This document shows positions 1,297-41,674 of a stretch of DNA of 64,000 nt, one piece after another (position 1 is the first letter of the stretch; each line of letters starts with the position of its first letter). The notes under the pieces are model-generated. The model saw only the letters and a program-made list of their open reading frames with translations. It did no database searches and was not told the DNA's origin. The position numbers were made by a program, and so were the translations under genes. The stretch is taken from contig CAYGMD010000002.1 of the NCBI GenBank assembly GCA_964350785.1, positions 215 to 64,214 of the forward strand, read 5' to 3'. Source of the DNA: an uncultured Acidobacterium sp. Its GTDB lineage: Bacteria > Acidobacteriota > Vicinamibacteria > Vicinamibacterales > UBA2999.

Positions 1297-1303
1297 GGAG
1301 ACC

Positions 1304-1462: not shown

Positions 1463-1466
1463 CCGC

Positions 1467-4194: not shown

Positions 4195-4205
<11 letters not shown>
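3414..4205 (+). CDS. wzm: ABC-2 type polysaccharide exporter permease (Wzm/TagG-like)
   Basis: 263 aa. The LMNLTRREVMGRYTQSIFGVGWAIAQPL signature of ABC-2 permeases is followed by about 6 hydrophobic segments. The ATPase gene is adjacent. Confidence 0.85.
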
Positions 4206-5474
<1,269 letters not shown>

Positions 5475-5478
<4 letters not shown>

Positions 5479-13565: not shown

Positions 13566-14776
13566 AGCTCGGCATCGTGTATCACATGCCGTTCTGGCGC
13601 GCCGCCGACGGCAGCTTGCGCGAGGTCGAGGGCTCGTTCGCGCGCTACGTGGACTCGCTGGCGCCGTACTTCGACGAGATCTCCCTGTGCGTGCCGGTGC
13701 TGGCCGAGGCGCGCGGCGAAGGCACGCCGATTCGCGCCACCAACGTCACCCTGGCGCCGCTGCCGAACTTCGAGGGCCCGGTGCATTTCTATCCGCAGCT
13801 CCTGGTGATGCTGCCGCGGATTTGGCGCTGGGTGCGCGGCATCGACGTGCTGCACTGCCGCATTCCCAGCCCCGCGGCGATCTTCGCGTTCGCCATGGCC
13901 CGGGTTCAGTCACGGCCGTCCTTCGTGCTGATTGTCGGCGACCTCCAGGCGTTGCTGCCGACCATGCCGTACCAGGGCATCAAGAAGATCCTGTGGCGCG
14001 GCTACACCGCGTTCGAGGAGTGGGCGGTGCAGTGGATGTCGGATCGCTCGGTGGCGTTCGCCAACGGCGAAGCGCTGGCGGCCAAGCACTCGACCGCCGC
14101 CAAGGCGGTGATTGCCACGACGACCACGACCATCAGCGCGGCCGACATCTCCTCGCGGCCCGACATCGACGCCGGCGACACCCTGCGCGTGCTGTGCGTG
14201 AGCCGCATCGATCCCCGCAAGGGCCTGCGGGTCCTGCCCGAGGTGGTCCGGCTCCTGGGCGACCAGCAGATCGCCGTGGCCCTCGACATTGTCGGCCCGG
14301 CCGTCGGGCGGCCGGGCGAGGATGAGATGACGGCCATTGCCATCGAGGCGGAACGCCTTGGCGTTGGCAAGCGGGTTCGCTGCCTGGGCCCGGTGCCGCT
14401 CGAGCGGCTGCTGCCACTCTATCGCGGCTACGACGTGTTCGTGTTGCCGACGTTGCCGGGTGAAGGCATTCCTCGCGTGCTGCTCGAGGCCATGACCGCG
14501 GGCGTGCCGGTGGTGACGACGCGGGTGGCGGGCATTCCCAGTTTGATCACGCACGAGGTCAACGGCCTGCTGGTCGAGGCGCCGACGGCGGCCGCGGTGG
14601 CGGGCGCAATCTCGCGGGTCGTGCACGACGCCGGGCTGCGCCGGCGCCTGATTGCCCACGGCTACGAAACCGCGCGCGGGTTCACGCTCGAGGCGCAGGC
14701 GGCGCGGCTGCTGGCCGAAGTCTCGGCGCGGCTGCCGATCACGCTGAAGCAGCCGGCGACGGTGACGGCGGCGTGA
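13562..14776 (+). CDS. GT4-family glycosyltransferase
   Basis: Internal ATG (MKLGIVYHMPF) overlapping the upstream stop. FVLPTLPGEGIPRVLLEAMTAGVPVVTTRVAGIPS is present. Confidence 0.85.
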   Translation: MKLGIVYHMPFWRAADGSLREVEGSFARYVDSLAPYFDEISLCVPVLAEARGEGTPIRATNVTLAPLPNFEGPVHFYPQLLVMLPRIWRWVRGIDVLHCRIPSPAAIFAFAMARVQSRPSFVLIVGDLQALLPTMPYQGIKKILWRGYTAFEEWAVQWMSDRSVAFANGEALAAKHSTAAKAVIATTTTTISAADISSRPDIDAGDTLRVLCVSRIDPRKGLRVLPEVVRLLGDQQIAVALDIVGPAVGRPGEDEMTAIAIEAERLGVGKRVRCLGPVPLERLLPLYRGYDVFVLPTLPGEGIPRVLLEAMTAGVPVVTTRVAGIPSLITHEVNGLLVEAPTAAAVAGAISRVVHDAGLRRRLIAHGYETARGFTLEAQAARLLAEVSARLPITLKQPATVTAA

Positions 14777-15903
14777 GTGAGCGCCGCCGGATCTGCTTCG
14801 TGTTGCCGTCCCTGGCTGGTGGGGGCGCGGAGCGCGCGGCGGTGCACATCCTGAATGCGCTCGATGAACGGCATTGGGATCGCTCGATGTATTTATTCGA
14901 TCGGGTTGGCCCCTATCTCGATGAAGTCGCGCCCGCGATTCGCGTGTCCGCCGGCGCCGTTCACTCGCGGTGGGGCCGGTGGCAGGCGCTGCGGCGCTTC
15001 ATTCGCGAGACCCGGCCAGAGATTGTCGTGTCCTTCCTGAGTTACTTTTCGGTGCTCACGGCCGCGCGGGCGGCCGGCGTCGGCGCGCGGGTGGTGTTCA
15101 ACCAGCAGACGCCGATGACGGCATTTCTCGCCGATGGCGACTATCCGTGGCGCGGGCGGTGGCATCGGCGGCTGTTTGCATTGGTGACGCGCACCGGCTA
15201 CGCGGCGGCCGATCTCGTCGTCACCACCTCGCGGGGGGTGGCCGAGGATCTCCAGGCCGCGTTTGGCGTCGATCCCGCCCACGTGCGCGTGGTGCCCAAC
15301 CCGGTTGACCTCGATCGCGTCGCGGCAGCCGCCCGGGAACCGCTCGAGGCCGAGTTCCTGTCACAGTGGACGCCGCCGGTGATTGTCGCCGCCGGCCGGC
15401 TGGCCGAGGCCAAGAACTACCCGTTGCTGATCGATGCGATGGCGTTGCTGCGGCAGCGGATGCCGGCGAAGCTGTTCATCCTGGGCCAGGGCGAGCTCGA
15501 AGGCGCGATTCGCGCGCGCATCGCCGAGCGCGGCCTCGCCGGCGCCGTGGTCCTGTGCGGCTTTCAGCGCAACCCCTGGCGGTTCATCGCCAAGGCTGAC
15601 GTGTTCGCGCTGACGTCTCACTACGAGGGGTTCGGCAACGTGCTGGTGGAAGCTATGGCGTGCGGCGTGCCGGTGGTCGCCACGGCATCAGCGGGCACCC
15701 GCGACATCATCCGCGATGGTGCAGATGGCCTGCTGGTGACCACGCATGATGCGGCCTCGGTGGCGGGCGCTTTCGAGCGCGTGCTCGGCGATCCGGCCCG
15801 CCGATCGCAGATGTCGACGGCAGCACGAGCCCACGCCATGGACTTCGCGTTGAACGCAGTGGCATCGCAGTACACCACCCTATTCCAAGGGTTGCTCGCG
15901 TGA
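14773..15903 (+). CDS. GT4-family glycosyltransferase
   Basis: RICFVLPSLAGGGAERAAV N-terminus and FALTSHYEGFGNVLVEAMACGVPVVATASAGTRD. Confidence 0.85.
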   Translation: MSERRRICFVLPSLAGGGAERAAVHILNALDERHWDRSMYLFDRVGPYLDEVAPAIRVSAGAVHSRWGRWQALRRFIRETRPEIVVSFLSYFSVLTAARAAGVGARVVFNQQTPMTAFLADGDYPWRGRWHRRLFALVTRTGYAAADLVVTTSRGVAEDLQAAFGVDPAHVRVVPNPVDLDRVAAAAREPLEAEFLSQWTPPVIVAAGRLAEAKNYPLLIDAMALLRQRMPAKLFILGQGELEGAIRARIAERGLAGAVVLCGFQRNPWRFIAKADVFALTSHYEGFGNVLVEAMACGVPVVATASAGTRDIIRDGADGLLVTTHDAASVAGAFERVLGDPARRSQMSTAARAHAMDFALNAVASQYTTLFQGLLA

Positions 15904-17294
15904 GCGCGCGCGTGCCGTGGACGTGGGTAGTCGTGATCGGCGTTGCCATTGGCTTCGCCTACACCCTGTCGCCGCTGACCTTCCTGGTCGCCGTCGGTTT
16001 GGCGCCGCTCTGGCGGTGGGCGAGCGCCGGCCTTTCCGTGCAGGAACGTCGTTGGATGCTTGGCCTCATGGCGATGGCCGTCGCATTCCGTGCGGTTGCC
16101 ATCGGCGGGTTGTTTCTCACGGCCGACCCGGCGATTCCCTACGCCAACTTCTTTGGCGACGAAGAGTTCTTCAAGCGCAAGACCACCTGGCTTCGCAATG
16201 TCAGCATGGGCGTCCCGATTTCGAAGGCCGACTTCATCTATGCCTTTGATGAAACGGGCGATAGCAGCTACCTCGATGTGTTGTCGTATCTGCAGGCGTT
16301 GGTCGGCCTGGCGCCGTATGGCATTCACGTCCTGAACGCGGGTGCCTATCTCGCCGCGGTCCTGGTGTTGTATCGCGTGGTGCGACGGGCGTTTGGCGGA
16401 TTCGCCGCGGTCTTTGGCGCGGCACTCCTGCTGTTTCTGCCGAGCCTCTTCATCTGGTCGATCTCGGCGCTCAAGGAGCCGCTCTACTTCCTGGTCGTCG
16501 CGGTCAATCTCGGCGCGGCCATGAGGATCGTCCGTGGGCCCACCTGGACCTGGCGCCTGGCATCCCTGGTGACGCTGATGGCCGGCGGCTTCATCCTCCA
16601 GACCCTTCGCGAAGGCGGTCTGGTCCTGGCGTTTGTGGGTGTCGCGGGTGGATTCGCGCTGGCGTTTGCGCTGACGCGGCCACGGGTGCTGCTGGCGGCC
16701 TGTGTCGCCGTGCCGCTGGTCCTCGCCATCGCGATCACGCGGCCGCCCGTGCAGGAACGGATGTGGGCCGGTGTCCACCAGGTGGCCCTGAAGCACTGGG
16801 GGTACATCAACACTCCCGGCCAGACCTACCGGTTGATGGAACCCGACTTCTATCTTGACCGGCAGGAAATCCAGGCGATGACGGCGGGGGACGTGGCCCG
16901 CTACACCCTGCGGGCCGCCTGGAGCTACCTGACCGTCCCGTTGCCCTGGCAGATCGAATCACGTTCCGCCCTCGCGTTCCTGCCGGAACAGATGATCTGG
17001 TACGCGCTGCTGGTGTTGATGCCGATCGGTGTCGCAATCGGACTCAAGCGGGACCCCTTGCTGACGTGCGTGTTAGTCACCCACGGACTGGTGGTGGCCG
17101 CCATGGTGGCGGTCTCCGGCGGCAACGTCGGTACGTTGGTGCGCCACCGCGGCCTGGCATTGCCGTACCTGGTCTGGCTCAGTGGCCTCGGCGCGGTGCA
17201 CATCGCCCGCGTCGTGTGGTCGTATGCGCCGGCGCGCGGCGGCGCCATCCTCGTTCACCCTTCTGACCCCAACGGCGGCCTGCCATGCCTGTAG
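15900..17294 (+). CDS. Polytopic membrane protein, possible GT-C (ArnT/PMT-like) glycosyltransferase
   Basis: 464 aa with roughly 10 or more hydrophobic segments. An acidic first-loop motif FFGDEEFF resembles the DE motif of the ArnT/PMT families. Confidence 0.45.
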   Translation: MSARVPWTWVVVIGVAIGFAYTLSPLTFLVAVGLAPLWRWASAGLSVQERRWMLGLMAMAVAFRAVAIGGLFLTADPAIPYANFFGDEEFFKRKTTWLRNVSMGVPISKADFIYAFDETGDSSYLDVLSYLQALVGLAPYGIHVLNAGAYLAAVLVLYRVVRRAFGGFAAVFGAALLLFLPSLFIWSISALKEPLYFLVVAVNLGAAMRIVRGPTWTWRLASLVTLMAGGFILQTLREGGLVLAFVGVAGGFALAFALTRPRVLLAACVAVPLVLAIAITRPPVQERMWAGVHQVALKHWGYINTPGQTYRLMEPDFYLDRQEIQAMTAGDVARYTLRAAWSYLTVPLPWQIESRSALAFLPEQMIWYALLVLMPIGVAIGLKRDPLLTCVLVTHGLVVAAMVAVSGGNVGTLVRHRGLALPYLVWLSGLGAVHIARVVWSYAPARGGAILVHPSDPNGGLPCL

Positions 17295-18750: not shown

Positions 18751-19853
18751 AGGACCGCAAGCTTCGTGTCCTCGTCGTGTCGCCGATCCCCGAAGAGGGC
18801 GCCGGCTGCCGCTTCCGGATTGGGCACTACATCCCGTACCTCGAGGCCAATGGCTTCGAGGTCACGCTGGTTTCCCTCTTTACGACCAGTTTCTTTCGAC
18901 TTGTCTACAAACCAGGCAACCTCGGCATCAAGGCGTTCAGGTTCGCGGGCCTGGCCTTGCGCCACCTCTGGCGTCTGCGCCGCGCCCGTGACTACGACGT
19001 CATCTTCATCTACCGGGAGATTTTCCCCGTGGGCCCGGCGTGGGTCGAGTGGTTGCTCGCGCGGGTTGGCCCGCCGATCGTGTTTGATTTCGACGACGCC
19101 ATCTTCCTGCCGAGCGTCAGCGAGGCGAACCGGCTGATCGCGGCGCTGAAGACGCCGGGCAAGGTCGCGACCATCGTGCGGCGCAGCGCCCAGGTCGTGG
19201 TCGGCAACGACTACCTGGGCGACTATGCGCGGCAGTTCAACCCCCGGGTGACGATGATTCCCACCGGCGTCGACACCACGCGGTTCACGCCACCGGCGAC
19301 CCCACGCCCGGTGGCCGGCGCCGGCGGCCCGATGGTCGGCTGGATTGGCAGCCCGACGACGGCCGCTTACCTGATGGGACTCGCGCCGGTTCTTCAGCAG
19401 GTGGCCGCCAGTCAGCCGTTCGTGTTGAAGGTCAGCGGCACCGGTGATCCGGTCAGGATGCCGGGTGTCGCGGTCGAGAACGCCGAGTGGCGGTTGAACG
19501 GCGAGATCGATCTGTTCCGCAGCTGCGATATCGGCGTCTACCCGCTGGTGGACGATGCGTGGGCCAAAGGGAAGTGCGGCTTCAAGGCGATCGAGTTTAT
19601 GGCCTGCGGCGTGCCGGTCGTCGCCTCGGCAGTTGGCGTCAACCGCGAGATCATCGAGGATGGCGTCAACGGCTTCCTGGCCAGCAGCGAGGAGGAATGG
19701 ATCGCCAAGCTGGGCCGTTTGATCGCGGAGCCGGCGTTGCGGGCGCGTTTCGCCGCCGCCGGCCGGCGTACTATTGAAGAGCGCTATTCGCTGCACGTCA
19801 ACGCGCCCAAGCTGGCCGACGTGCTGCAGCGAGCCGCAAGGAGAGTTGGGTGA
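18747..19853 (+). CDS. GT4-family glycosyltransferase
   Basis: LRVLVVSPIPEEGAGCRFRIGHYIPYLEANGF N-terminus and GFKAIEFMACGVPVVASAVGVNREII. Start is uncertain (TTG 18747 overlapping the upstream TGA, or GTG 18777). Confidence 0.8.
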   Translation: MKDRKLRVLVVSPIPEEGAGCRFRIGHYIPYLEANGFEVTLVSLFTTSFFRLVYKPGNLGIKAFRFAGLALRHLWRLRRARDYDVIFIYREIFPVGPAWVEWLLARVGPPIVFDFDDAIFLPSVSEANRLIAALKTPGKVATIVRRSAQVVVGNDYLGDYARQFNPRVTMIPTGVDTTRFTPPATPRPVAGAGGPMVGWIGSPTTAAYLMGLAPVLQQVAASQPFVLKVSGTGDPVRMPGVAVENAEWRLNGEIDLFRSCDIGVYPLVDDAWAKGKCGFKAIEFMACGVPVVASAVGVNREIIEDGVNGFLASSEEEWIAKLGRLIAEPALRARFAAAGRRTIEERYSLHVNAPKLADVLQRAARRVG

Positions 19854-20794
19854 AGAACTTTGCCATCACCGGCGTCGCCGGTTACATCGCGCCCCGTCAT
19901 CTCAAGGCGATCCAGGACACCGGCAGCCGCCTGGTGGCGGCGACCGACCCGCACGACGCGGTCGGCATCCTCGATCGGTTTGCCTTCGACGTGCGCTTCT
20001 TCACCGAGATCGAGCGGTTCGATCGGCACCTCGAGAAGCTGCGCCGCGGCCCCGCCGATCAACGCGTGGACTACGTCAGCATCTGCTCGCCCAACCACCT
20101 GCACGACGCGCACATCCGCCTGGCGCTGCGCGTCGGCGCCAACGCGATCTGCGAGAAGCCCCTCGTCATCAACCCGTGGAACCTCGATGCCCTGCAGGAA
20201 ATCGAGCGCGAGACCGGGCGCAGCGTCAAGACCATCCTGCAGCTTCGCGTGCATCCGCAGCTGATCGCCTTGCGCGACCAGTTGCTGGCCGACACCTCGA
20301 AGCGTCACCAGGTGTGCCTGACCTACATCACCGCCCGCGGGTCCTGGTACGACACGTCGTGGAAGGGCCACGTCGAACGCTCCGGCGGCATCGTCACCAA
20401 CATCGGCATTCACTTCTTCGACTTGCTGATCTGGCTGTTCGGCGGCGTGCGCTCGTCGCAAGTGAACCTGCGCGACACGCATGAGGCGGGCGGTGTCCTC
20501 GACCTCGAGCGGGCCGACGTGCAGTGGTTTCTGTCGACCGACAGCCGTCAACTGCCCTTCACGCCGGAGCCCGGCAAGAAGACGACCTTCCGCTCGATCA
20601 CGGTGGACGGCCAGGAGATCGAGTTCAGCGAGGGATTCACCGACCTTCACACCCGCGTCTACGAACAGGTCCTGGCCGGGGCGGGATTCGGCATCGACGA
20701 TGCGAGGCCGTCGATCGAGCTGACCTCGACGATTCGCACCGCGGACGTGGTCAAGGGGTCGCATCCGCATCCCAAGGTGGTGGCGCGTGGCTGA
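19850..20794 (+). CDS. wbpB: WbpB/WlbA-like UDP-GlcNAcA 3-dehydrogenase (Gfo/Idh/MocA family)
   Basis: Near full-length similarity to my recollection of P. aeruginosa WbpB: [75 protein letters not shown]. Confidence 0.85.
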
Positions 20795-21365
20795 CGTATT
20801 CGTGCACGAGTCGTCGTACGTCGACGACGGCTGCGAGATCGGCGCCGGCTCGAAAATCTGGCACTTCTCGCACGTGATGTCCGGCTCGCGCATCGGCAAG
20901 CGCTGCAACATCGGCCAGAACGTGGTGGTGTCGCCGCAGGTCGTGATTGGCGACAACGTCAAGATCCAGAACAACGTCTCGATCTACACCGGCGTCATCC
21001 TGGAAGACGACGTGTTCTGCGGGCCGTCGATGGTGTTCACCAACGTCGTCAATCCTCGCAGCCACGTGTCGCGGAAAGACGAGTACAAGACGACGCTGGT
21101 CAAGCAGGGCGCGAGCCTGGGGGCCAACTCCACCATCGTGTGCGGCCATACCATCGGCCGATTCGCCTTCATCGGCGCCGGGGCGGTGGTGACCAAGGAC
21201 ATTCCTGACTACGCACTGGTGGTCGGAAATCCCGGCCGCATCAGCGGCTGGATGTGCGGGTGCGGCGTGAAGCTCGCGGCCGGCGCGACGCCGCCGGTCA
21301 AGGCCACCTGCGCGGCCTGCGGCACGGCCTACGCCACCAAAGACGGCCAACTCGCCCCGGCATGA
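20787..21365 (+). CDS. wbpD: WbpD/WlbB-like left-handed beta-helix N-acetyltransferase
   Basis: Hexapeptide repeats. [34 protein letters not shown] and [24 protein letters not shown] closely match my recollection of WbpD. Confidence 0.85.
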
Positions 21366-21625
21366 GCAGCGGGCCGGAACGCGACGTGATGACAGGCATT
21401 CGCGCCTGCATGCAGACGGCGCTGAAATTGAGCGATGCCGATACGGCCGCGATCACGATCACGACGACCCCCGACCAACTGCCCGGGTGGACGTCGATGG
21501 CGCACCTCGAGCTGGTTCTGGCGCTCGAGCGGCAGTTCGACTTGACGTTCGAGGCCGATGAGATTGCCGAGCTCGCGTCGGTCAAGGCCATCGTCGGCGC
21601 GCTGGAAAAAGTGAGAACCAACTGA
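21362..21625 (+). CDS. Acyl carrier protein-like (PP-binding) protein
   Basis: 87 aa. [29 protein letters not shown] fits the carrier-protein helix II region, with a candidate phosphopantetheinyl Ser in GWTSM. ATGA overlap with wbpD. Confidence 0.7.
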
Positions 21626-21626
21626 C

Positions 21627-22754
21627 ATGGCAGGCGTGACACCGCTCGTGGTGCCCCAGGTCAACGTCAACGACGAGTCCGTGCGCCTCGCGCGCTGGTC
21701 CGTGCCCGACGGGGCGACGGTGGCCGCAGGTGATGCGGTGTGCGACGTGGAGACGACGAAGGCGGCGTCGGAGATCACTGCCGGTGCCGGCGGGGTCCTG
21801 GTGCAGTCCGTCAGTGCTGGCGATCAGGTCGCGGTCGGCGCGGTGATAGGTGCGATTGGCCCCACGCGCGAAGCCGCCGCGGCCTTTCTCGCCGAGCGGG
21901 TCGCGGTGGCCCGGCCGGACGCCGGTAGTGGCGCGACGGCGAAGGCGACGGCACTCGCGGCCCAGCATGGCGTGACCCTCGATCAGGTTCGAGCAGCCGG
22001 CGTGCAAGGAACCATCAAGGAAACCGACGTGCGTCGATTCATCGACGCGTCGGCGAAGGCCCTGCCGGCCGGGCTGGCAAAGTACTTCGATCGCGAGGGC
22101 GCGCTGCCCGGCTTCGACGCCGCGATTGCCGCGAACCTGCGGCGATCGACCCAGGGATTGATCCTGACCAGCGTTGACATGGACTGCCGCCTGTCTGCGG
22201 CGCAGGCCGTGATCAAGGACGCGCAGGCGGCCGGCAAGATGGTGAGCCTGCTGCACGTGGTGATCGCCGCGGTTGCCCGCGCGCTGCCCGCGTTTCCGCG
22301 CCTGACCAGCTTCGTGTGGGAAGGCTCGCTCTACCGCCACAAGGCGACGGACATCGCGTTTGTCGCCCGGGCCGCCGACGGCCGGTTGTTCACGCCCGTG
22401 CTGCGAGGCGCGGACCAGTTGTCCGTGACCGACATCGCCAAGGCGTCACAGGCCGCGGCCATGCGGGCCATGCGGGGCACCACCAGGGCCGAGGAGCTCG
22501 AGGGCGCGGCCTTCACGATCTCGCACGTGCCCGTGCCGGGCACCACGCGCGTGGTGGCGCTTCCCAGCTTTGGCCAGTCGGCCATTCTCGGCGTGTCGGC
22601 CGAACGGACCGCCGTCGCCTGGGTGGACGGCGCAGCGGCCGCCCAGCCGATGGTGACCTTCACCCTGAGCTACGACCACGCGCTGTGTGACGGCGTGTAT
22701 GCCGCCGGCTTCCTTGCCGCGCTCGTGAAGGATCTGGAGTCGTCACGATCGTGA
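21627..22754 (+). CDS. E2-type dihydrolipoamide acyltransferase (lipoyl, E3-binding and catalytic domains)
   Basis: Lipoyl domain CDVETTKAASEI (canonical ETDKA). Peripheral-subunit-binding-like segment ATALAAQHGVTLDQVRAAGVQGTIKETDVRRFI. Catalytic motif SYDHALCDG (DHxxxDG). Confidence 0.8.
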   Translation: MAGVTPLVVPQVNVNDESVRLARWSVPDGATVAAGDAVCDVETTKAASEITAGAGGVLVQSVSAGDQVAVGAVIGAIGPTREAAAAFLAERVAVARPDAGSGATAKATALAAQHGVTLDQVRAAGVQGTIKETDVRRFIDASAKALPAGLAKYFDREGALPGFDAAIAANLRRSTQGLILTSVDMDCRLSAAQAVIKDAQAAGKMVSLLHVVIAAVARALPAFPRLTSFVWEGSLYRHKATDIAFVARAADGRLFTPVLRGADQLSVTDIAKASQAAAMRAMRGTTRAEELEGAAFTISHVPVPGTTRVVALPSFGQSAILGVSAERTAVAWVDGAAAAQPMVTFTLSYDHALCDGVYAAGFLAALVKDLESSRS

Positions 22755-23626
22755 CTACGGCCGACCGCTACGCGCAGCTCCTCGGCATTCGCCTGTTCGA
22801 GCAGTCGCTCCTCGACTTGTTCTCGACCGGGGCGCTCTCGGGAACGACGCATACCTGCCTCGGGCAGGAGACCGTGGCCGTCGGCGTGGTCTCGGCCATC
22901 GACCGCACGCGCGACATCGTGTTCAGCAATCACCGGGGGCACGGCCACTTCCTGGCGTACTGCGGCGAGGTCGAACGGCTCTACCTTGAGATTCTCGGCA
23001 AGCCCGGCGGCGTGTGCGGCGGCCGCGGCGGCAGCCAGCACCTGTATTTCGACAACTTCTACTCGAACGGCGTCCAGGGCGGCATTGTCCCCGTCGCCAC
23101 CGGCATGGCGTTGGCCGAGAAGCAGAAGGGCAGTGGCGCGGTGGCCGTGGTGTTCCTTGGCGATGGCACCCTCGGCGAGGGCGTCGTCTACGAGGCCTTC
23201 AATATCGCGTCGTTGTGGTCACTGCCGATCGTCTTCGTGATCGAGCACAACGGCTATGCGCAAAGCACGCCGTCGGCGCTGCAAATTGCGGGCGAGGTGG
23301 CAGCGCGGCCGCGGGCGTTTGGCATTGCCACCGAGGAGTGCCGCTCGACCGACGCCGCCGAGATTTCGGCGCAGGCGACAAAGGCGATCGCCGCGGCCAG
23401 GTCGGGCCGTGGACCGCAGTGCCTGGTTTGCTACACCTATCGGCTTGGCCCGCACAGCAAGGGCGACGACACGCGTCCGGAGGCAGAACTGCGCGAGGCG
23501 TGGTCGCGCGATCCCGTGACGGCCGCGCGGGCCGGACTCGATGAGGCGACCGCGGCGGCCATTGAACAGCGCGTCGGCGCCGAGATCCTGGCCGCGCGCA
23601 CGCGCGCGCTCGAGGCCGCGTCGTAG
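22751..23626 (+). CDS. Thiamine-diphosphate-dependent E1 component, alpha subunit
   Basis: TPP motif FLGDGTLGEGVVYEAFNIASLWSLPIVFVIEHNGYA (GDG...N). 291 aa. GTGA overlap with the E2 gene. Confidence 0.85.
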   Translation: MTTADRYAQLLGIRLFEQSLLDLFSTGALSGTTHTCLGQETVAVGVVSAIDRTRDIVFSNHRGHGHFLAYCGEVERLYLEILGKPGGVCGGRGGSQHLYFDNFYSNGVQGGIVPVATGMALAEKQKGSGAVAVVFLGDGTLGEGVVYEAFNIASLWSLPIVFVIEHNGYAQSTPSALQIAGEVAARPRAFGIATEECRSTDAAEISAQATKAIAAARSGRGPQCLVCYTYRLGPHSKGDDTRPEAELREAWSRDPVTAARAGLDEATAAAIEQRVGAEILAARTRALEAAS

Positions 23627-24637
23627 ATGCCCACCGTGCTCGAATCGATCAACCAGGGCCTGCACGGTGCGATGGCCGCGGATTCGCGGGTGGTCGTGCT
23701 CGGTGAAGACATCCTTGACCCTTACGGCGGCGCGTTCAAGGTGACCAGGGGACTGTCGTCGGCCTATCCCGATCGTGTCTTCACGACGCCGATCTCCGAG
23801 GCGGCGATTGTCGGCCTGGCCTCGGGCCTGGCGCTGCGCGGGATGCGGCCGATTGCCGAGATCATGTTCGGCGACTTCCTGTTTCTCGCCGGTGATCAGC
23901 TCGCCAATCACGCGGCCAAGTTCCAGTGGATGTACAACGACCAGGTCCGCGTGCCGATGGTGGTGCGGGCGCCGATGGGCGCGCGGCGCGGCTACGGGCC
24001 CACGCACAGCCAGTCGCTCGAGAAGCACTTCATGGGCGTCCCCGGCCTGTGGGTGGTGGCGGCGCACATCCTCGGCGAGCCGGGCCGCCTGCTGCGGCAG
24101 GCCGTCGAGTGGGACGCGCCGGTGGTCTTCATCGAGAGCAAGACCTGCTATGGCCGCGCCCTCGTCGCGGCAGTCCCGGGCATGACGGCTACCGTCATTG
24201 CGGATGAGGCCTCGCCCTTTCCCACGCTGGTGCTCCGTCACGATCGCAGCGACGCCGCCGATGGCTTGCTGTGGTGTTACGGCGGAATGACGCCGCATTG
24301 CCTCGAGGCGGTGCAGCACTTGAAGGAGGTCGAGGGCCTGCACCTCGATCTCGCGGTGGTCAGCCAGTTGTCGCCGGTGCCGGCCTCACACCTCGCGCGC
24401 ATCGTCGCCGACGGCGAGACGACGCTGTTTGTCTACGCGGAAGAGGCGAGTGCTGAGCACGGGTGGTCCGCGGAGATCCTCGCGCAGGTGCAGCAGTGCG
24501 TGAGCGCGTCCGGGCGACCGGGGCGTCACCTCCGCATCGGCGGCGCGCATACGCCGATTCCGAGCAGTCGCGTCCTCGAGATGGACGTTGTGCCCGCCGC
24601 GCGCGACATCATCGCGCGCGTCCTGGAGTGTTTCTGA
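23627..24637 (+). CDS. E1 component, beta subunit (transketolase-like pyrimidine-binding and C-terminal domains)
   Basis: VVVLGEDILDPYGGAFKVTRGL, TPISEAAIVGLASGLALRGMRPIAEIMFGDF and the VVRAPMGARRGYGPTHSQS motif. Start codon directly abuts the alpha-subunit stop. Confidence 0.9.
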   Translation: MPTVLESINQGLHGAMAADSRVVVLGEDILDPYGGAFKVTRGLSSAYPDRVFTTPISEAAIVGLASGLALRGMRPIAEIMFGDFLFLAGDQLANHAAKFQWMYNDQVRVPMVVRAPMGARRGYGPTHSQSLEKHFMGVPGLWVVAAHILGEPGRLLRQAVEWDAPVVFIESKTCYGRALVAAVPGMTATVIADEASPFPTLVLRHDRSDAADGLLWCYGGMTPHCLEAVQHLKEVEGLHLDLAVVSQLSPVPASHLARIVADGETTLFVYAEEASAEHGWSAEILAQVQQCVSASGRPGRHLRIGGAHTPIPSSRVLEMDVVPAARDIIARVLECF

Positions 24638-25590
24638 TTAGCCGCCGCCATCTCATCTTCGCCGCGCAAGCCGTGGTCACCACGGTGCTGCTGGTGCTGC
24701 TGTTCCGCCGGTTCGACTGGGCGCGGTTTGCCGAAGTGTTGCAGCAGATGCCGGCCTGGTTCTACGCCGGCTCGCTCGTGGTGCTGGCGCTCGGGCAGGC
24801 GCTCTACGCCTACCGATGGCGTGTGGTGCTGGCGGGCATCGGCGTCGACGTGCCGTTCGGCGAAGTGCTGCGCCAGTATTTCATCGGCATCTTCTTCGCC
24901 AACCTGATGCCGACGGCGGTCGGCGGCGACGCGGCGAAGGTCTATTACCTCGGCCGGCGCTCGGGATTCGTGCAGATAACCGCCTCGGTCATCCTCGACC
25001 GGCTGCTGGGCTTCGTCTGGCTGGCGGTGATTGGGGCGGCGCTGGCGTGGGCGGTGGGTGGGGATGCGCCGGTGCTGGTCCTGAACCGCCGGTTGCTGAC
25101 GCTGTTTGCCGCGGGATTCGGGGTGGCGCTGCTGGTCGCCTGGCTGGTGCCGGTCGAGCGCGTCCTGCCACGCCTGGTGCCCGCGCGATGGAGCTCGTGG
25201 ACCTCCCGGGTCAGCGAGTTCGTGCTGCTGGTGCGCGAGGGCGTGTGCCGGCCGGCGACGTTCTTCACTGCCGGCGCCATTGTCGGCGCCTACGCCTGGC
25301 TCATCGCCATGGTGTACCAGCAGTACTTTGCCGTGAGCGGCCTTCCCGCGCTGGCCCTCCTGCCGGTGCTGCTGGCGATCGTCAGCATGTCGATCTTCGT
25401 GAACGTGCCGATCACGGTCGGCGGCATCGGCTTGCGGGAGCAACTCCACGTGCTGCTGTTCACCGCGTTTGGCGTGCCCAAGGAAGTGGCCGTGACGATC
25501 TCACTGATATTGTTCTCGCAGTCGTTGTTGTTGAGCCTGATCGGCGGCGGCCTGTGGCTCAGGATTCGGCCGACGGTGGTGGCGGCATGA
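24628..25590 (+). CDS. UPF0104 / LPG-synthase-TM (flippase-like) membrane protein
   Basis: About 8 hydrophobic segments. FDWARFAEVLQQM...YAYRWRVVL and FFANLMPTAVGGDAAKVYYL are motifs typical of this family. Start is uncertain (GTG 24628). Confidence 0.6.
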   Translation: MFLISRRHLIFAAQAVVTTVLLVLLFRRFDWARFAEVLQQMPAWFYAGSLVVLALGQALYAYRWRVVLAGIGVDVPFGEVLRQYFIGIFFANLMPTAVGGDAAKVYYLGRRSGFVQITASVILDRLLGFVWLAVIGAALAWAVGGDAPVLVLNRRLLTLFAAGFGVALLVAWLVPVERVLPRLVPARWSSWTSRVSEFVLLVREGVCRPATFFTAGAIVGAYAWLIAMVYQQYFAVSGLPALALLPVLLAIVSMSIFVNVPITVGGIGLREQLHVLLFTAFGVPKEVAVTISLILFSQSLLLSLIGGGLWLRIRPTVVAA

Positions 25591-27335
25591 GCGACGTCGT
25601 CATTCACGCCAGGGACCTCACCAAGGTCTACCGGCTCTACACGAGCCCGCGCTACCGATTTCTCGACATGTTCGGGATGCTGCGGAATGCGGCCGGCGCC
25701 TACACGGAGCACGCGGCGCTCGGCGGGGTCAGTCTCGACATCCGTCGCGGCGAGAAGGTGGCGTTCATCGGCCGGAACGGCGCTGGCAAGAGCACGCTGT
25801 TGAAGCTCTTCACCGGGGTCATCGAGCCCACGTCCGGCACACTCGACGTGCGCGGCAAGGCGCACGCGCTGCTGCAGATCGGTACCGGCTTCCATCCTGA
25901 TTTCAGCGGCCGGGAGAATGTCTACGCCTACCTGGCCCAATTGGGTGTGACCGGGCGCGAGGCCGACAGGAAGTACGGGGAGATAGTCGAGTTTGCCGAG
26001 CTCGAGGAGTACATCAGCCAGCCGGTCAAGACCTACTCGAGCGGCATGGCCGTTCGCCTGATGTTCTCGACCTCGACCGCCATCACCCCCGACCTGTTGG
26101 TGCTCGACGAGGTGCTCGGTGTGGGCGACGCATATTTTGCGCATAAGAGCTACGGCCGCATCCGCGAGTTGTGCGAACGCGACGGCACGACCCTCCTTCT
26201 GGTGACGCACGACGTCTACTCGGCGGTCACCATTTGCGACCGCGTGATCTGGATCGATCATGGTCGCGTGTTGATGGACGGTGACGGCGCGACCGTCGTC
26301 AACGCCTATGAAAACTCGATCCGGGTCCAGGAAGAGCAACGCCTGCGGCTGAAGGCCGGGCAGCGGGCGAAGGAACTGGCGGCTGCCGGGGGCAGCCTGG
26401 TGGTCGTCGAGGTGTTCGCCGCCGATGGTGTGCCGCCCGCGTGCCCAGTCTACTTCTCCCGCATCGAACTCATGGCAGGAGGCGAGAGCATTGGCCGCCT
26501 GTCGCTGGACGGCTCGCCGGCGCCGCGGTCGGCGCTCCAGTTTGAGGGCAGCAACTGGGGCGGCGGCGTCGAATGGGAAGGCCGGCCCGCGCGCGCGATG
26601 CTGAACTTTGGTTCACCTTTCCAGAAGGTGGCCGGCACCGTCGCCGCTCCGGCCTCGTTGACCGATATCGCCAGCGAGACGTTGTCCCTCGAGTTGGATT
26701 ACTGGTCGGCCGAGCCGTGCACTTTGGCAGCGCGCGCTTTTGTGGACGGCGGCGAGATCACGCTGGGGCCGTTGCCGCCATCGAGGTCCTCGTGGATCAC
26801 TCATCGCGCCGTGCCGTCGGACGTGACCCTGGCCGAGAAGGCGCGCGAGTTGACGCCATCCGGCCGCCAGGGAACGGGATCGATCGTCGTCGAGAAGGTT
26901 CTTCCCTGCAACGCCGAGGGCCAGGAGACGTACGCGTTCCGTCATGGCGAGGCGTTCGAGTTGCGGATGCGGTATCGCATCAACCAGCCCGGCCTGCGCG
27001 AGCGGCCGCAGATCCTCGTCGCCTTCCTGCGCGACGGTGTCCAGGACGTGATGCGCACCATCAGCCGCGAGTTCGTGTTCGACGAAGCGCGCCAGCGCGA
27101 GGGCGAGGTCGTTCTTCGCTACCCGAAGCTGCCGCTGGCGAACGGCACCTATTCGGTGACCGTGATGATGGCCCGCGAGGGGTACTACGACGAACAACAG
27201 ACGCTTTACTTCTCGATTAATCCTGGCGTCTACACCTGCCTGACGCGCCTGTTCGATATTTCCGTCGAGCATGGGGGCATCGTCGGCAGCGGCACCGCGG
27301 TTGTGACCGACGGAGACTGGAGCCTTCTGCCATGA
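25587..27335 (+). CDS. Second Wzt-like ABC ATPase with a ~330-aa bipartite C-terminal extension; no adjacent permease
   Basis: Internal ATG (MSDVVIHARDLTKVY) overlapping the upstream stop. Walker A GRNGAGKST, signature YSSGMAVRL, Walker B LLVLDE. A long beta-rich tail ends in a Wzt_C-like segment. Confidence 0.85.
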   Translation: MSDVVIHARDLTKVYRLYTSPRYRFLDMFGMLRNAAGAYTEHAALGGVSLDIRRGEKVAFIGRNGAGKSTLLKLFTGVIEPTSGTLDVRGKAHALLQIGTGFHPDFSGRENVYAYLAQLGVTGREADRKYGEIVEFAELEEYISQPVKTYSSGMAVRLMFSTSTAITPDLLVLDEVLGVGDAYFAHKSYGRIRELCERDGTTLLLVTHDVYSAVTICDRVIWIDHGRVLMDGDGATVVNAYENSIRVQEEQRLRLKAGQRAKELAAAGGSLVVVEVFAADGVPPACPVYFSRIELMAGGESIGRLSLDGSPAPRSALQFEGSNWGGGVEWEGRPARAMLNFGSPFQKVAGTVAAPASLTDIASETLSLELDYWSAEPCTLAARAFVDGGEITLGPLPPSRSSWITHRAVPSDVTLAEKARELTPSGRQGTGSIVVEKVLPCNAEGQETYAFRHGEAFELRMRYRINQPGLRERPQILVAFLRDGVQDVMRTISREFVFDEARQREGEVVLRYPKLPLANGTYSVTVMMAREGYYDEQQTLYFSINPGVYTCLTRLFDISVEHGGIVGSGTAVVTDGDWSLLP

Positions 27336-29810: not shown

Positions 29811-31808
29811 ATGTGTGGAATCGTTGGTAGTTTTAAGCCGGGCGGTGAAGCGTGCGGCGAGGCCGTGATCGGCGCCATGCGCGACCGCATGGCCCATCGC
29901 GGTCCTGACGGCGCTGGTTTCTGGCAGTCGCCGGCCCGGGACTGTGCGCTGGGCCATCGCCGGTTGTCGATCATCGACCTGTCGTCGGCCGCCAACCAGC
30001 CCATGCTGAACCGCGCCGGGACAGTGGCGGTGGCGTTCAACGGCGAGATTTACAACCACGCCGACGTGCGTCGTGAGCTGGAGGCACTGGGCAAGTACGA
30101 ATGGACGACCGACCATTCGGACACGGAGGTGCTGCTTCATGCCTACGAAGAGTGGGGCCTGGAGTGCACGAAGCGGTTCCACGGCATGTTCGCCGTAATC
30201 ATCTACGACGCTCGCGACGCCGGCCGGCCGGTCGTGCACCTGATTCGCGATCGCGTGGGCGTGAAACCGCTGTACTTCACCAAGACCAGGACCGGTGAGT
30301 GGTTGTTCGCTTCGGAGATCCGTGCCTTGCTGGGCCATCCCGATGTCTCCACCGAGATGGACCGGACGGCCTTCTGGCATTACCTCACCTTCATTGTCAC
30401 GCCGGCGCCGATGACCTTGTTCAAGGGCATCTTCAAGATGCCGGCCGGCCACACCATCTCCATCGACCACCACGGACAGGCGACGTCACGGCAGTGGTGG
30501 GATTGCCGCCCCGACGCGAGCAGCCTGTACTCCGAGAAGGACCTCAGCGAGCCCGAAGCCGTCGCTGAGTTGACGCGGCTGTTGAAGCAGGCCATTGCGC
30601 GCCGGATGGTGTCGGATGTGCCCTTCGGCGTGCTGTTGTCCGGCGGCGTGGACTCGTCTTTGAATGTGGCGCTGATGAGCGAGTTGATGACGCGTCCGGT
30701 AACGACGTTTACCATCGGCTACGAAGGCAAGGAAGACTACAACGAGTTCCAGTTCGCCCGGCGGGTCAGCGACCGCTACAAGACCGAGCATCACGAGACG
30801 TTGATCAGCGGGCAGGAAGCGCAGGACTTCCTGCCGCTGCTGGTTCGGCTGCAGGACGAACCGATTGCCGACAACGTCTGCATCCCGCTCTACTTCCTGT
30901 CGCGCCTGGTCCGGCAATCGGGCACCACGGTCGTGCAAGTAGGTGAGGGCGCGGACGAGAATTTCCTTGGCTACTGGTGGTGCGAGCACTACCGCCAGAA
31001 GTACGAGCAGGTTTACAAGCCGGCGCGGCGCACCAGCTTCTGGCAGCGGCTGCGGCAACGTGCCCACGCGGCCGCGCCTGGCGCCACGCAGGAAGACGTC
31101 GACATCGTCAACCGCGCCAAGGCCGGGCAGGAACTGTTCTGGGGCGGTGCGGCGTGCTGGTGGGGCGAGATGCGCAACCGGCTGACGCCGGATCCGGGCG
31201 CGTTCCGCGGCACCGTGGAATGCCCGGTGGCCGGCTTGATGCCGGCGTCGCATGAGGAGCTCGACAGCCACGCCGTCGTGCGGGAGTATCTCGGCAAGCT
31301 CGACGGCAAGCTCCTCGAGCCCGAGGTGCTGCAGAAGATCCCCTACATGGAGATGAAGCTGCGGCTCCCTGAGCACTTGTTGATGCGTGTCGACAAGCTC
31401 ACGATGGCACACTCGATCGAGGCTCGCGTGCCGTTCCTCGATCACGATGTCGTCGAGTTTGCGACGAAGCTGCCGCCCTCATACAAGCTGAAGAACGGCG
31501 TGGGCAAGGCGCTGCTCAAGAAGGCCGCCGAACCTTACCTGGATCACGATCTCGTGTATCGCAAGAAGCAGGGCTTCGGCGCGCCGATGGAGGAATGGTT
31601 CCAGGAAGGCGACTTTGGCCCGCGCTGCCTCGCCGCGTTCGAACGCTCGAAGTTGGCGCAAGAGGGCTTCTTTGACAACGCCTACTTCACCGACCTGCTC
31701 AAGGGGCAGATGGCGGGCCGCGGCGGCTACAGCTTCCAGCTCTGGACCGTGATCAATGCGGTGTTGTGGCACGCGTCGTGGATTGAAGGACGGGAGGACT
31801 GTCTCTGA
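29811..31808 (+). CDS. Asparagine synthase (glutamine-hydrolysing)-like amidotransferase, copy 2
   Basis: MCGIVGSF start and PP-loop LSGGVDSSL. 665 aa. A 38-nt gap lies upstream. Confidence 0.9.
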   Translation: MCGIVGSFKPGGEACGEAVIGAMRDRMAHRGPDGAGFWQSPARDCALGHRRLSIIDLSSAANQPMLNRAGTVAVAFNGEIYNHADVRRELEALGKYEWTTDHSDTEVLLHAYEEWGLECTKRFHGMFAVIIYDARDAGRPVVHLIRDRVGVKPLYFTKTRTGEWLFASEIRALLGHPDVSTEMDRTAFWHYLTFIVTPAPMTLFKGIFKMPAGHTISIDHHGQATSRQWWDCRPDASSLYSEKDLSEPEAVAELTRLLKQAIARRMVSDVPFGVLLSGGVDSSLNVALMSELMTRPVTTFTIGYEGKEDYNEFQFARRVSDRYKTEHHETLISGQEAQDFLPLLVRLQDEPIADNVCIPLYFLSRLVRQSGTTVVQVGEGADENFLGYWWCEHYRQKYEQVYKPARRTSFWQRLRQRAHAAAPGATQEDVDIVNRAKAGQELFWGGAACWWGEMRNRLTPDPGAFRGTVECPVAGLMPASHEELDSHAVVREYLGKLDGKLLEPEVLQKIPYMEMKLRLPEHLLMRVDKLTMAHSIEARVPFLDHDVVEFATKLPPSYKLKNGVGKALLKKAAEPYLDHDLVYRKKQGFGAPMEEWFQEGDFGPRCLAAFERSKLAQEGFFDNAYFTDLLKGQMAGRGGYSFQLWTVINAVLWHASWIEGREDCL

Positions 31809-32992
31809 TGACCGCGCCACGGATGACGGTGGAGTTCTATCGCCACAGCCTGGAGGAGGCCGACATTGCACGGCTGGTGGAGGTGTGTCGCGGGGTCTTC
31901 CTGACGACGGGCCAGGAGGTCAAGGCTTTCGAGGATGCGTTCGCCGCGTATCTCGGCGCGCGACACGCGGTGGGTGTTACGAGCTGCACGGCAGGCCTGC
32001 ACCTTGCCCTGCTGGCTGTGGGAATAGGGCCTGGCGACGAGGTGATTACGACGCCGATGACCTTCGCGGCGACCTCGAACACGGTGCTGCACACGGGCGC
32101 TACGCCGGTGTTTGTTGACGTGGAGCCGGATACCGGTCTGATCAGCGCCGAGGCCGTGGAGCGGGCAATCACGCCACGGACCCGGGCCATTGTGCCGGTG
32201 CATCTCTATGGGCAGATGGCCGACATGCGCCGTCTCCGGGAGATTGCCGACCGTGCGGGGGTTCGCGTGATCGAGGATTGCGCGCATGCCATCGAATCGG
32301 TGCGCGATGGCATTAAGCCAGGGCAGCTCGGCGATGCAGCCGCGTTTAGCTTCTACGCCACCAAGAACATCACGAGCGGCGAAGGCGGTGCGGTGGTGAC
32401 CAACGATGCGACGGTCAACACTCGGCTGCGCTTGTTGCGACAGCACGGAATGTCGGCCAGTGCGGCCGAACGCTACACCGGCACCTACCGGCACTACGAC
32501 ATAGAATTGCTCGGCTGGAAGTACAATATGGCGAATCTGCAAGCGGCCTTGCTGCTCGGACAGATGGAGCGCCTTGACACGATGTGGCGGCGCCGCGAGG
32601 ACATTTCGCAACAATACGAGCAAGGCCTACGCCACATCGAGGGCGTGTCGTTTCCCGTCATCTTGGCGGGGGCACGGTCGGCACGCCACCTGTTTACCAT
32701 CTGGGTGGCCCCGGCCCACCGCGACAGGATCCTTTTCGACCTTCAGGCGCGCGGGGTGGGCGTGGCTGTCAACTATCGTGCCGTGCACCTGCTCAAGTAT
32801 TACCAGGATACCTTCAGAATTCCCCGCGGTGCCTTCCCAGTGGCGGAGCGGATCGGTGATTCGACCATCACCCTGCCACTCTATCCGAAGCTGACCGAAG
32901 CGGAGGTCGACTACGTAGTCAAGAACGTCCGTGAATCGGCGGCGAACGCCGCAAGTTTGCCGCCTGTCTCCAATGGCCCGCGCACTACCTGA
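31808..32992 (+). CDS. DegT/DnrJ/EryC1/StrS-family PLP sugar aminotransferase
   Basis: FSFYATKNITSGEGGAVVTND (PLP lysine), GDEVITTPMTFAAT, LGWKYNMANLQAALLLGQ. TGATG 1-nt overlap with the upstream gene. Confidence 0.9.
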   Translation: MTAPRMTVEFYRHSLEEADIARLVEVCRGVFLTTGQEVKAFEDAFAAYLGARHAVGVTSCTAGLHLALLAVGIGPGDEVITTPMTFAATSNTVLHTGATPVFVDVEPDTGLISAEAVERAITPRTRAIVPVHLYGQMADMRRLREIADRAGVRVIEDCAHAIESVRDGIKPGQLGDAAAFSFYATKNITSGEGGAVVTNDATVNTRLRLLRQHGMSASAAERYTGTYRHYDIELLGWKYNMANLQAALLLGQMERLDTMWRRREDISQQYEQGLRHIEGVSFPVILAGARSARHLFTIWVAPAHRDRILFDLQARGVGVAVNYRAVHLLKYYQDTFRIPRGAFPVAERIGDSTITLPLYPKLTEAEVDYVVKNVRESAANAASLPPVSNGPRTT

Positions 32993-41660: not shown

Positions 41661-41674
41661 CAGCCGGACTTTTG

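Follow-up and report, generated by a model that had tools for sequence, protein, structure and literature searches.

Why would a locus for a bacterial surface glycan encode the E1 and E2 components of a 2-oxoacid dehydrogenase beside a carrier protein? The question is raised by a 64,000-nucleotide stretch of DNA from an uncultured soil Acidobacterium sp. (Vicinamibacterales; contig CAYGMD010000002.1; the whole stretch is hereafter called the window), in which four adjacent genes, referred to here as the cassette, encode an acyl carrier protein (ACP), a lipoyl-bearing E2 acyltransferase, and the E1alpha- and E1beta-like subunits of a thiamine diphosphate (ThDP) enzyme. With a probability of about 0.62, we propose that these genes would form a self-contained cassette supplying an acyl-ACP for glycan acylation, of the type represented in secondary metabolism by QncN/QncL/QncM (quinocarcin), NapB/NapD (naphthyridinomycin), SclQ1-4 (scleric acid) and RenH/RenI (renieramycin), collectively Qnc/Nap/Scl/Ren. 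The evidence consists of the gene content, motifs and translational coupling of the four genes, the phylogenetic affinity of their products to biosynthetic-cluster systems, and the linkage of the ACP gene to the E1 and E2 genes in other genomes.

The four proteins and their absent partners

A preliminary description of the window, made from the sequence alone, had reported four translationally coupled genes for a carrier protein, an E2, an E1alpha and an E1beta, and all of its sequence-level statements were confirmed. The ACP and E2 genes are separated by a single nucleotide, the E2 and E1alpha genes overlap within GTGA, and the TAG stop codon of the E1alpha gene is followed directly by the ATG of the E1beta gene. 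The G+C content at third codon positions (GC3) of the four genes was 0.84-0.87 and homologues were found at 60-88% identity, which together indicate that the four open reading frames (ORFs) are real genes.

The small ORF, described earlier as a carrier protein with a modifiable Ser in GWTSM, scored above the PF00550 gathering cut-off of 20.8 bits (Table 1), and both W43 and S45, the latter being the Ser of this motif, were invariant across 14 homologues from several phyla. In the E2, the lipoyl domain and the DHxxxDG acyltransferase core were recovered by their Pfam models, with K45 (ET[ST]KA; ETTKA in the window) and H351/D355 (YDHALCDG) invariant in 23 family members. The peripheral-subunit-binding-like segment (PF02817, approximately residues 103-136) was sub-threshold in the window protein (15.7 bits, residues 109-136), yet was detected in 23/23 aligned members of the family. 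The complete ThDP motif claimed for the E1alpha is present as GDG-x25-N (FLGDGT...IEHNGYA), and the transketolase-like character of the E1beta was borne out by matches to both a pyrimidine-binding domain and the C-terminal domain of transketolase.

The preliminary description had also found no gene for the dihydrolipoamide dehydrogenase (E3), a lipoate ligase or a phosphopantetheinyl transferase (PPTase) in the 64 kb. Pfam scans of ORFs covering 58.6 of the 64 kb likewise detected no E3, Pyr_redox, lipoate ligase, LipA/LipB or PPTase domain, and the redox-disulfide motif of E3 was found in none of the six frames of the window. The largest unscanned stretch encodes a polytopic membrane protein (Table 1).

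Kinship with enzymes of antibiotic clusters

A tblastn search with the E1alpha protein against annotated plasmid and megaplasmid records returned best matches at 46-55% identity, which lay inside non-ribosomal peptide synthetase (NRPS) or polyketide synthase (PKS) clusters. On the renieramycin plasmid the match was RenH, a fused E1alpha-beta protein followed by the E2-like RenI, whilst in Streptomyces (NBC_01136) it belonged to a set annotated as an ACP, an E1alpha, a transketolase C-terminal protein and an E2, adjoining NRPS, PKS and MbtH genes. Another match fell within a Paenibacillus PKS cluster carrying two ACPs, to which the window ACP is also homologous, and a profile search located E1alpha-E1beta-E2 sets in unannotated stretches of Nonomuraea and Streptantibioticus records. 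The next tier of E1alpha matches, at 40-44% identity, comprised ACP-less catabolic sets of Rhizobium and Azospirillum, and annotated pdhA, encoding the E1alpha of pyruvate dehydrogenase (PDH), reached approximately 37%. These informative matches came through the E1alpha and not the E2, which was at most ~30% identical to any annotated E2 among 72,556 plasmid, chromid and megaplasmid records and matched housekeeping-type proteins only.

In pairwise comparisons the E1alpha was 52% identical to that of the Streptomyces cluster and 50% identical to RenH, and the E1beta was 36% identical to its Streptomyces counterpart and 41% identical to the C-terminal half of RenH. The corresponding values for the E2 were 28% (Streptomyces) and 19% (RenI). 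The ACP was 46% identical to the Streptomyces NRPS-cluster ACP, with an identical PGWTS motif; no stand-alone ACP homologue was found beside RenH/RenI.

Neighbour-joining trees with bootstrap support were built for the E1alpha, E1beta and E2, pdhA being included in the E1alpha tree only. In that tree the cassette clade received 95% support and its union with RenH 100%, whilst the clade holding all five cluster E1alphas received only 55%; pdhA and the catabolic E1 proteins of Azospirillum and Rhizobium fell outside. The E1beta and E2 trees each united cassette and cluster enzymes in a superclade (100%), outside which fell the catabolic set of Azospirillum and a Rhodovulum set of fused E1/E2 annotated as a pyruvate dehydrogenase with a branched-chain E2. 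The cassette formed a clade of its own, sister to RenH and the other cluster E1/E2 proteins. The E1alphas of the cassette and the clusters also share GTTHTC (for GFxHL), GGSQH (for GGSMH) and GDGT (for GDGA), which were absent from five outgroup sequences; these residues appear to be derived signatures of the clade and are not decisive as evidence on substrate. The quinocarcin/naphthyridinomycin precedent named in the preliminary description is backed by both identities and trees, and the phylogenetic comparison with housekeeping enzymes placed the cassette with the biosynthetic-cluster enzymes. Taken across the plasmid and megaplasmid records, the data support quinocarcin/naphthyridinomycin-type enzymes as the probable closest annotated homologues, a relationship that would go beyond mere analogy.

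Of the scleric acid proteins SclQ1-4, the ACP measures 76 aa, the ThDP protein 305 aa, the pyrimidine-binding/transketolase C-terminal protein 338 aa and the lipoyl-acyltransferase 386 aa. Like QncN/L/M, they have been assigned to the formation of an activated glycolic acid unit out of a ketose phosphate (PMC6335953). RenH/RenI have been assigned the 'two-component transketolase-ACP' reaction of Qcn7/Qcn9 (PMC13249901). Both SclQ1-4 and RenH/RenI are described as homologous to the Qnc enzymes, whose product from ketose phosphates is glycolicacyl-S-ACP. Priming of carrier proteins by E1/E2 enzymes has more than one precedent, and pathways with such PDH-like priming have no E3 of their own but draw on that of primary metabolism (PMC5384830). 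The cassette resembles the Qnc/Nap/Scl/Ren systems in its ThDP, pyrimidine/transketolase C-terminal and lipoyl-acyltransferase proteins and small ACP, in the lack of an E3 in the cluster, and in a sister-group position on which the three trees agree; SclQ1-4 and the Streptomyces NBC_01136 set moreover consist of four separate genes with sizes matching those of the cassette. It differs in its divergent E2 and separate clade, so far encountered only in uncultured Acidobacteriota, Actinomycetota, Bacteroidota, Planctomycetota and Alphaproteobacteria, and in lying within a glycan operon instead of an NRPS/PKS assembly line. No NRPS, PKS, ketosynthase (KS) or lipid-synthesis domain was detected in the Pfam scans of the window, and because no NRPS condensation domain is there to consume the unit, the cassette lacks one defining feature of the Qnc/Nap/Scl/Ren systems. 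Plu2796 of the pepteridine pathway offers a further parallel, in that an E1/E2 is proposed to prime a carrier thiol instead of coenzyme A (CoA) with a borrowed E3 (PMC5384830); there, however, T and C domains are fused to the E2 and the acceptor is a pterin, whereas the cassette has a free-standing ACP and a glycan setting.

Distribution, neighbouring acyltransferases and the window locus

A total of 137 E2 relatives were retrieved at E<=1e-10, nearly all from metagenomes, and the taxon-labelled minority came from Acidobacteriota or Vicinamibacterales together with one Deltaproteobacteria metagenome-assembled genome (MAG). Relatives at 59-86% identity retained the full order of WbpB, WlbB-like, ACP, E2, E1alpha, E1beta, PF03706 and Wzt genes, and in those at 39-56% identity the ACP-E2-E1alpha-E1beta block was embedded in glycan loci of a quite different make-up (L006, L007 and L008). 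A scan of 185,579 species genomes for two E2 motifs yielded 19 loci, all in MAGs, from Acidobacteriota, Actinomycetota, Bacteroidota, Planctomycetota, Alphaproteobacteria and one Deltaproteobacterium. All related cassette loci derive from metagenomes or MAGs, in which ORFs were called mechanically.

When a hidden Markov model built from seven ACPs was applied to the E2-seeded loci, an ACP homologue was found directly beside the E2 and E1 genes in 23 of the 24 that could be assessed. The genes are ordered either ACP-E2-E1alpha-E1beta or E2-E1alpha-E1beta-ACP, and the linkage extends over at least five phyla. The sole exception (L004/L015, positions 10001-13183, from a deltaproteobacterial MAG) is an E2-E1alpha-E1beta set amid thiolase, acyl-CoA dehydrogenase and CoA-transferase genes, with an enoyl-CoA hydratase gene also nearby, and appears to be a CoA-delivering variant. 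The reciprocal search, seeded with the ACP, gave nine loci (L028, L029 and L039-L045), in every one of which the E2 gene was directly adjacent, and two of the ACP-seeded look-ups revealed E2-E1alpha-E1beta-ACP adjoining family 2 glycosyltransferase (GT2) and heptose-nucleotide genes. Among metagenome loci with an ACP at least 56% identical, as sampled with a narrow ACP alignment, the E2 gene lay immediately downstream in 7/7, of which L044 is the same contig as L005. The surroundings of the cassette were mostly glycan loci, with GT2/GT4, DegT, AsnB, epimerase, Wzm/Wzt and heptose genes, and the co-occurrence with glycan genes that the preliminary description had proposed to survey was observed in the majority of cases.

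Several loci held additional genes beside the cassette. In L016 (Acidobacteriota, 13428-14573) and L019 (Bacteroidota, 12669-13760), the gene directly after that of the ACP has a conserved, soluble product of 363-381 aa that matched neither Pfam nor NCBIfam models and is a candidate for a novel enzyme using acyl-ACP. The planctomycete loci L022 and L024 (approximately 9600-13600) encode an ACP and E2 with no E1 nearby, a sigma-54 activator upstream and, downstream, a conserved protein without a family match (689 aa in L022); L022 also encodes a PPDK_N-domain protein. A second, divergent E1alpha/E1beta-like pair was present upstream of E2-E1alpha-E1beta in L007 (3951-11750). More distant ACP relatives (31-44% identity) adjoin FkbH-domain proteins (TIGR01686; 301 and 288 bits, cut-off 146.65). 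FkbH enzymes load glyceryl units onto ACPs, and this pairing suggests small hydroxyacyl units as the cargo of the ACP family at large. Two such loci (L046, 5199-7213, and L049, 6953-8948) combine ACP relatives at 31-36% identity with FkbH-domain proteins and fusions of MaoC and short-chain dehydrogenase/reductase domains, and in L046 hexapeptide transferase and GT2 genes lie close by; these loci may be engaged in a glyceryl-ACP-based glycan decoration.

The acyltransferases encoded near the cassette vary, and include hexapeptide proteins (WlbB-like or other, with one in L008), a GNAT protein (L017), a DltB-like MBOAT (L007) and another MBOAT (L026). All-against-all clustering of the locus ORFs identified no acyltransferase family common to all cassette loci, and this variety without a universal partner fits a generic donor module. 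In L007 the DltB-like MBOAT, which scored 99.6 bits to 6BUG, comes directly after the ACP homologue together with a GDSL-like protein, an order that reproduces the DltC-DltB-DltD logic of the Dlt system; the loader differs, being E1/E2 instead of the adenylating DltA, and no MBOAT homologue was found in the window. ACP-dependent N-acylation presumably also operates in the O-antigen locus of Vibrio cholerae O1, through RfbK-O. In the O-polysaccharide locus of Flavobacterium psychrophilum, wfpD/wfpG have been proposed to provide an ACP-delivered N-acyl group that is handed to a PglD-like transferase (PMC6519341). The likeness between wfpC-G and the window would lie in the proposed transfer of an unusual acyl group from a locus-specific ACP to a PglD/WbpD-like hexapeptide transferase that acts on an amino sugar (PMC6519341), and the difference is in the loading, which in the O-antigen ACP systems is fatty acid synthase-like or ligase-based and not by a ThDP/lipoyl E1-E2.

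The window has a G+C content of ~67% and consists almost entirely of a single plus-strand glycan mega-locus of the ABC-transporter type, with the four cassette genes in the middle of an O-antigen-like operon, between WbpB/WbpD genes on one side and a Wzt ATPase on the other (Table 1). Its Pfam content includes many GT4 and GT2 glycosyltransferases, nucleotide-sugar epimerases and dehydratases, three AsnB-like amidotransferases, two DegT aminotransferases, a carbamoyltransferase and several methyltransferases. The upstream neighbours, previously described as WbpB- and WbpD-like, were identified as such by their solved relatives; the WbpB gene is translationally coupled to the WlbB-like gene, whose stop codon overlaps the ACP start in ATGA. 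Within the WbpB/WbpE/WbpD pathway to 2,3-diacetamido-uronic acid, the WbpB and WbpD/WlbB orthologues are accompanied by a DegT aminotransferase further downstream, and neither WbpA nor WbpI was seen in the 64-kb window. In place of the single Cys of the aligned B. petrii WlbB, the C-terminus of the WlbB-like protein (encoded at 21275-21362) bears a Cys-rich tail, MCGCG...CAACG (CxC...CxxC), which may serve as a small element for zinc binding or docking.

Table 1. Cassette genes and other features of the window, with positions counted from its first nucleotide
Feature	Position	Strand	Evidence
SxtJ-like protein adjoining carbamoyltransferase	904-3365
Wzm/Wzt pair	3414-5478		Pfam
WbpB orthologue (UDP-N-acetylglucosaminuronic acid 3-dehydrogenase type)	19850-20794	+	341 bits to Pseudomonas aeruginosa WbpB 3OA2; GFO_IDH_MocA domains
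WlbB/WbpD-type left-handed beta-helix N-acyltransferase	20787-21365	+	233 bits and ~60% identity to Bordetella petrii WlbB 3MQG; Hexapep repeats
Dedicated acyl carrier protein, 87 aa	21362-21625	+	PF00550, 23.4 bits; Ser45 in PGWTSM
E2, lipoyl domain, peripheral-subunit-binding segment and acyltransferase core	21627-22754	+	Biotin_lipoyl, 36.4 bits; 2-oxoacid_dh, 123 bits
E1alpha-like ThDP-binding subunit, 291 aa	22751-23626	+	E1_dh (PF00676), 157.7 bits; signature GTTHTC / GGSQH / GDGT
E1beta-like pyrimidine-binding and transketolase C-terminal subunit, 336 aa	23627-24637	+	Transket_pyr (PF02779), 97.9 bits; Transketolase_C (PF02780), 32.6 bits
PF03706 (LPG_synthase_TM / flippase-like) membrane protein, ~7 transmembrane (TM) segments	24628-25590	+	PF03706, 118.5 bits; TIGR00374, 46.4 bits
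Second Wzt-type ABC ATPase with C-terminal Wzt_C glycan-binding domain	25587-27335	+	ABC_tran, 70.9 bits; Wzt_C, 40.3 bits
DegT aminotransferase	31808-32992		Pfam
Large paralogous protein	39660-41660		No Pfam match
Large paralogous protein	41594-43723		No Pfam match
Radical-SAM/SPASM enzyme	43746-44900
Formyltransferase-like protein	47714-48454
WbqC-like protein	53378-54118
Large paralogous protein	55154-57688		No Pfam match
AAC(3)/FrbF-like N-acetyltransferase	58977-59810		47 bits to 7LAP
GT2 glycosyltransferase	59807-60607
Polytopic membrane ORF	60610-62118		GC3 0.82

Downstream, the flippase-like membrane protein and exporter ATPase of the preliminary description correspond to a PF03706 protein and a Wzt-type ATPase. 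The PF03706 gene begins with a GTG that overlaps the E1beta stop, and the ATG of the ATPase gene overlaps the PF03706 stop in ATGA. A PF03706 homologue also lies 3' of the E1beta gene in L001, L002, L003, L005, L010, L011 and L014; no solved relative of the window protein was found by sequence. This second Wzt-type ATPase has no adjoining Wzm and is coupled instead to the PF03706 (MprF-type flippase-like) protein, with the canonical Wzm/Wzt pair situated 20 kb upstream. The PF03706 and Wzt genes adjoin directly in L001, L002, L003 and L005, whilst other genes intervene in L010 and L011, and the two products may represent an unusual combination of ATPase and membrane partner.

Elsewhere in the window, three large paralogous proteins (666-844 aa) are homologous to a 716-aa protein with ~12 TM segments encoded after the L006 cassette and to one in L011. 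The gene for an AAC(3)/FrbF-like N-acetyltransferase precedes a GT2 gene, after which the polytopic membrane ORF, coding-looking by its GC3, continues in another frame; either a frameshift or an internal start would account for the change. GDSL-like proteins are encoded at 25-897 and 48451-49962 and are, with the AAC(3)-like enzyme, further candidates for use of the acyl-ACP. The SxtJ-like protein adjoining a carbamoyltransferase, the radical-SAM/SPASM enzyme, and the formyltransferase-like and WbqC-like proteins point to several further unusual glycan modifications.

Proposed chemistry, rival explanations and implications

In the reaction sequence we propose, an E1alpha/E1beta heterotetramer would, through its ThDP, capture a C2 unit of a central metabolite, the source by homology most likely being the glycolaldehyde unit of a ketose phosphate or, alternatively, a hydroxyethyl group from pyruvate. 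The unit would pass, with oxidation, to the lipoylated K45 of the E2, whose core (H351/D355) would hand the thioester to the phosphopantetheine on S45 of the ACP instead of to CoA, giving glycolyl-S-ACP or acetyl-S-ACP. The reduced lipoyl arm would be re-oxidised by the housekeeping E3 of the cell, docking through the peripheral-subunit-binding segment, and a sugar or glycan produced by the locus would receive the acyl group from the ACP. The donor metabolite, the acyl product, the recruitment of a housekeeping E3 and the delivery to the glycan are inferred. By homology with the cluster enzymes, and given the shared E1 signatures, glycolyl is favoured as the acyl group at roughly even odds; acetyl would be a less likely product, and any other group less likely again. 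That an acyl-S-ACP would serve as donor for N- or O-acylation of the glycan, as the preliminary description had suggested, is supported by the kinship and the ACP linkage, whilst its candidate acyl groups and acceptor stay at the level of prediction.

Several observations weigh against the proposed acyl-ACP supply to the glycan. The substrate is not readable from the sequence, and in L017 a pyruvate kinase paralogue (14372-16123; PK barrel, 302 bits) lies just downstream of the GNAT-ACP-E2-E1 genes, which hints at pyruvate as the substrate in that lineage. The trees held few outgroups, so that sampling was thin, and took in RenH/RenI and the cluster sets, with QncN/L/M, NapB/D and SclQ1-4 likened by description only. 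The E2 is just 19-28% identical to the cluster E2s and has YDHALCDG where these have FDHRV. The ACP-less L004 set nests inside the cassette clade among CoA and beta-oxidation genes. L016, L019, L022 and L024 are not clearly glycan loci, on account of which the statement that the cassette is always found in glycan loci was rejected in favour of 'mostly'. Finally, the ~60% identity of the WlbB-like transferase to the acetyl-CoA-dependent WlbB means that it may not be an ACP client; the adjacent hexapeptide transferase was accordingly weakened as the obvious client and, being encoded by a gene coupled to that of the ACP, is retained as a weak candidate for the acyl-ACP consumer.

Delivery to the ACP might instead be combined with classical 2-oxoacid dehydrogenase chemistry, in which oxidative decarboxylation of pyruvate or of another 2-oxoacid, such as 2-oxobutyrate or hydroxypyruvate, would yield an acetyl- or other acyl-ACP for the glycan. 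We regard this as unlikely, though still a serious contender: the best solved relative of the E1alpha is human PDH E1alpha (134 bits, versus ~75 for the branched-chain 2-oxoacid dehydrogenase), its top NCBIfam match is TIGR03182 (PDH_E1_alph_y), and GPHS in the E1alpha and THSQ in the E1beta, read by eye from the translations, look like sites of the catalytic His. The pyruvate kinase paralogue of L017 and the PPDK_N-domain protein near the L022 cassette would also suit a 2-oxoacid, and other PDH-like carrier-protein primers use 2-oxoacids (PMC5384830). However, the E1 subunits group with RenH and cluster enzymes assigned to ketose-derived glycolyl and not with pdhA, and the active-site substitutions they have in common with the cluster enzymes are absent from PDH. 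Acetyl-CoA is, moreover, already available, and an acetyl-ACP route would need a special reason, such as a carrier-dependent transferase. A functional cassette could otherwise feed a lipid or small molecule, for example a membrane lipid handled by the PF03706 protein, with its position in the glycan locus being incidental. PF03706 is a family of MprF-type lipid flippases, coupling of its gene to E1beta is seen both in the window and in the Acidobacteriota relatives listed above, the closest annotated relatives of the cassette act in secondary metabolism, and L016, L019 and L022 show no glycan genes. We nevertheless judge it improbable, since the Pfam scans of the window found no NRPS, PKS, KS or lipid-synthesis genes, the cassette sits in mid-operon between the WbpB/WbpD genes and the Wzt ATPase, and unrelated loci again place it among glycosyltransferase and nucleotide-sugar genes.

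Least probable by far, and already disfavoured, is the reading of the cassette as a standard PDH or acetoin-type complex, catabolic or housekeeping, that delivers to CoA beside a small ORF that is unrelated or encodes a non-functional ACP. The E1/E2 domain families, ThDP motif and lipoyl-Lys of the PDH complex (PdhA/PdhB/PdhC/Lpd), its peripheral-subunit-binding segment and its catalytic His/Asp do recur in the cassette, a related E2-E1alpha-E1beta set without an ACP occurs in the CoA-catabolic setting of L004, and the Azospirillum and Rhizobium homologues at 40-43% identity are catabolic. Yet its proteins fell far below the NCBIfam equivalog cut-offs for PDH and 2-oxoglutarate dehydrogenase (E2, 123.6 versus 722; E1alpha, 208.7 versus 393.85; E1beta, 148.6 versus 321 bits), no E3 gene was found in the window, a dedicated ACP with an invariant Ser is conserved alongside, pdhA lies outside the clade, and the E2 is only distantly related to the annotated E2s of the plasmid records. 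The acetoin E2 model NF011457 covered residues 4-152 alone, the lipoyl end of the protein, and the catalytic core is a 2-oxoacid_dh domain. AcoC-type E2 proteins have an alpha/beta-hydrolase core instead.

No published cassette of the PDH/transketolase-lipoyl-ACP type in a glycan locus was found in the open-access literature. A supposed precedent, PDH-like genes in the lipopolysaccharide locus of Legionella, found no support there and was set aside. To our knowledge, the use of ThDP and lipoate to divert a C2 unit of central metabolism to a carrier protein has so far been confined to a few antibiotic pathways. The preliminary description knew of no such role in polysaccharide biosynthesis, and this appears to hold for the ThDP/lipoyl loader but not for the use of an ACP, as ACP-delivered N-acylation has already been proposed (PMC6519341). 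A broader hypothesis, which we offer tentatively and consider somewhat doubtful in its entirety, is that glycan-locus cassettes across phyla make glycolyl- or small hydroxyacyl-ACP from ketose phosphates as a dedicated donor for N- or O-acylation by interchangeable transferases (hexapeptide, GNAT and, in some lineages, DltB-like MBOAT with SGNH-like proteins). If true, it would provide a hydroxylase-independent route to glycolylated bacterial sugars, and the MBOAT route would amount to Dlt-style carrier-dependent export of an acyl group other than D-alanine.

For annotation, genes now mislabelled as pyruvate dehydrogenase can be recognised by a combined marker, namely W-[TDN]-S in the ACP, YDHALCDG in the adjoining E2 and GTTHTC/GGSQH in the E1alpha. 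The cassette also suggests a carrier protein as the acyl source for some MBOAT-type glycan acyltransferases, which bears on the donor choice of such enzymes. Glycans of Acidobacteriota and other environmental bacteria are predicted to bear cassette-dependent acyl groups, possibly glycolyl, and if the proposed acyl-ACP supply is correct, C2-loading chemistry would extend to cell-surface glycan biosynthesis in widespread, mostly uncultured soil phyla.

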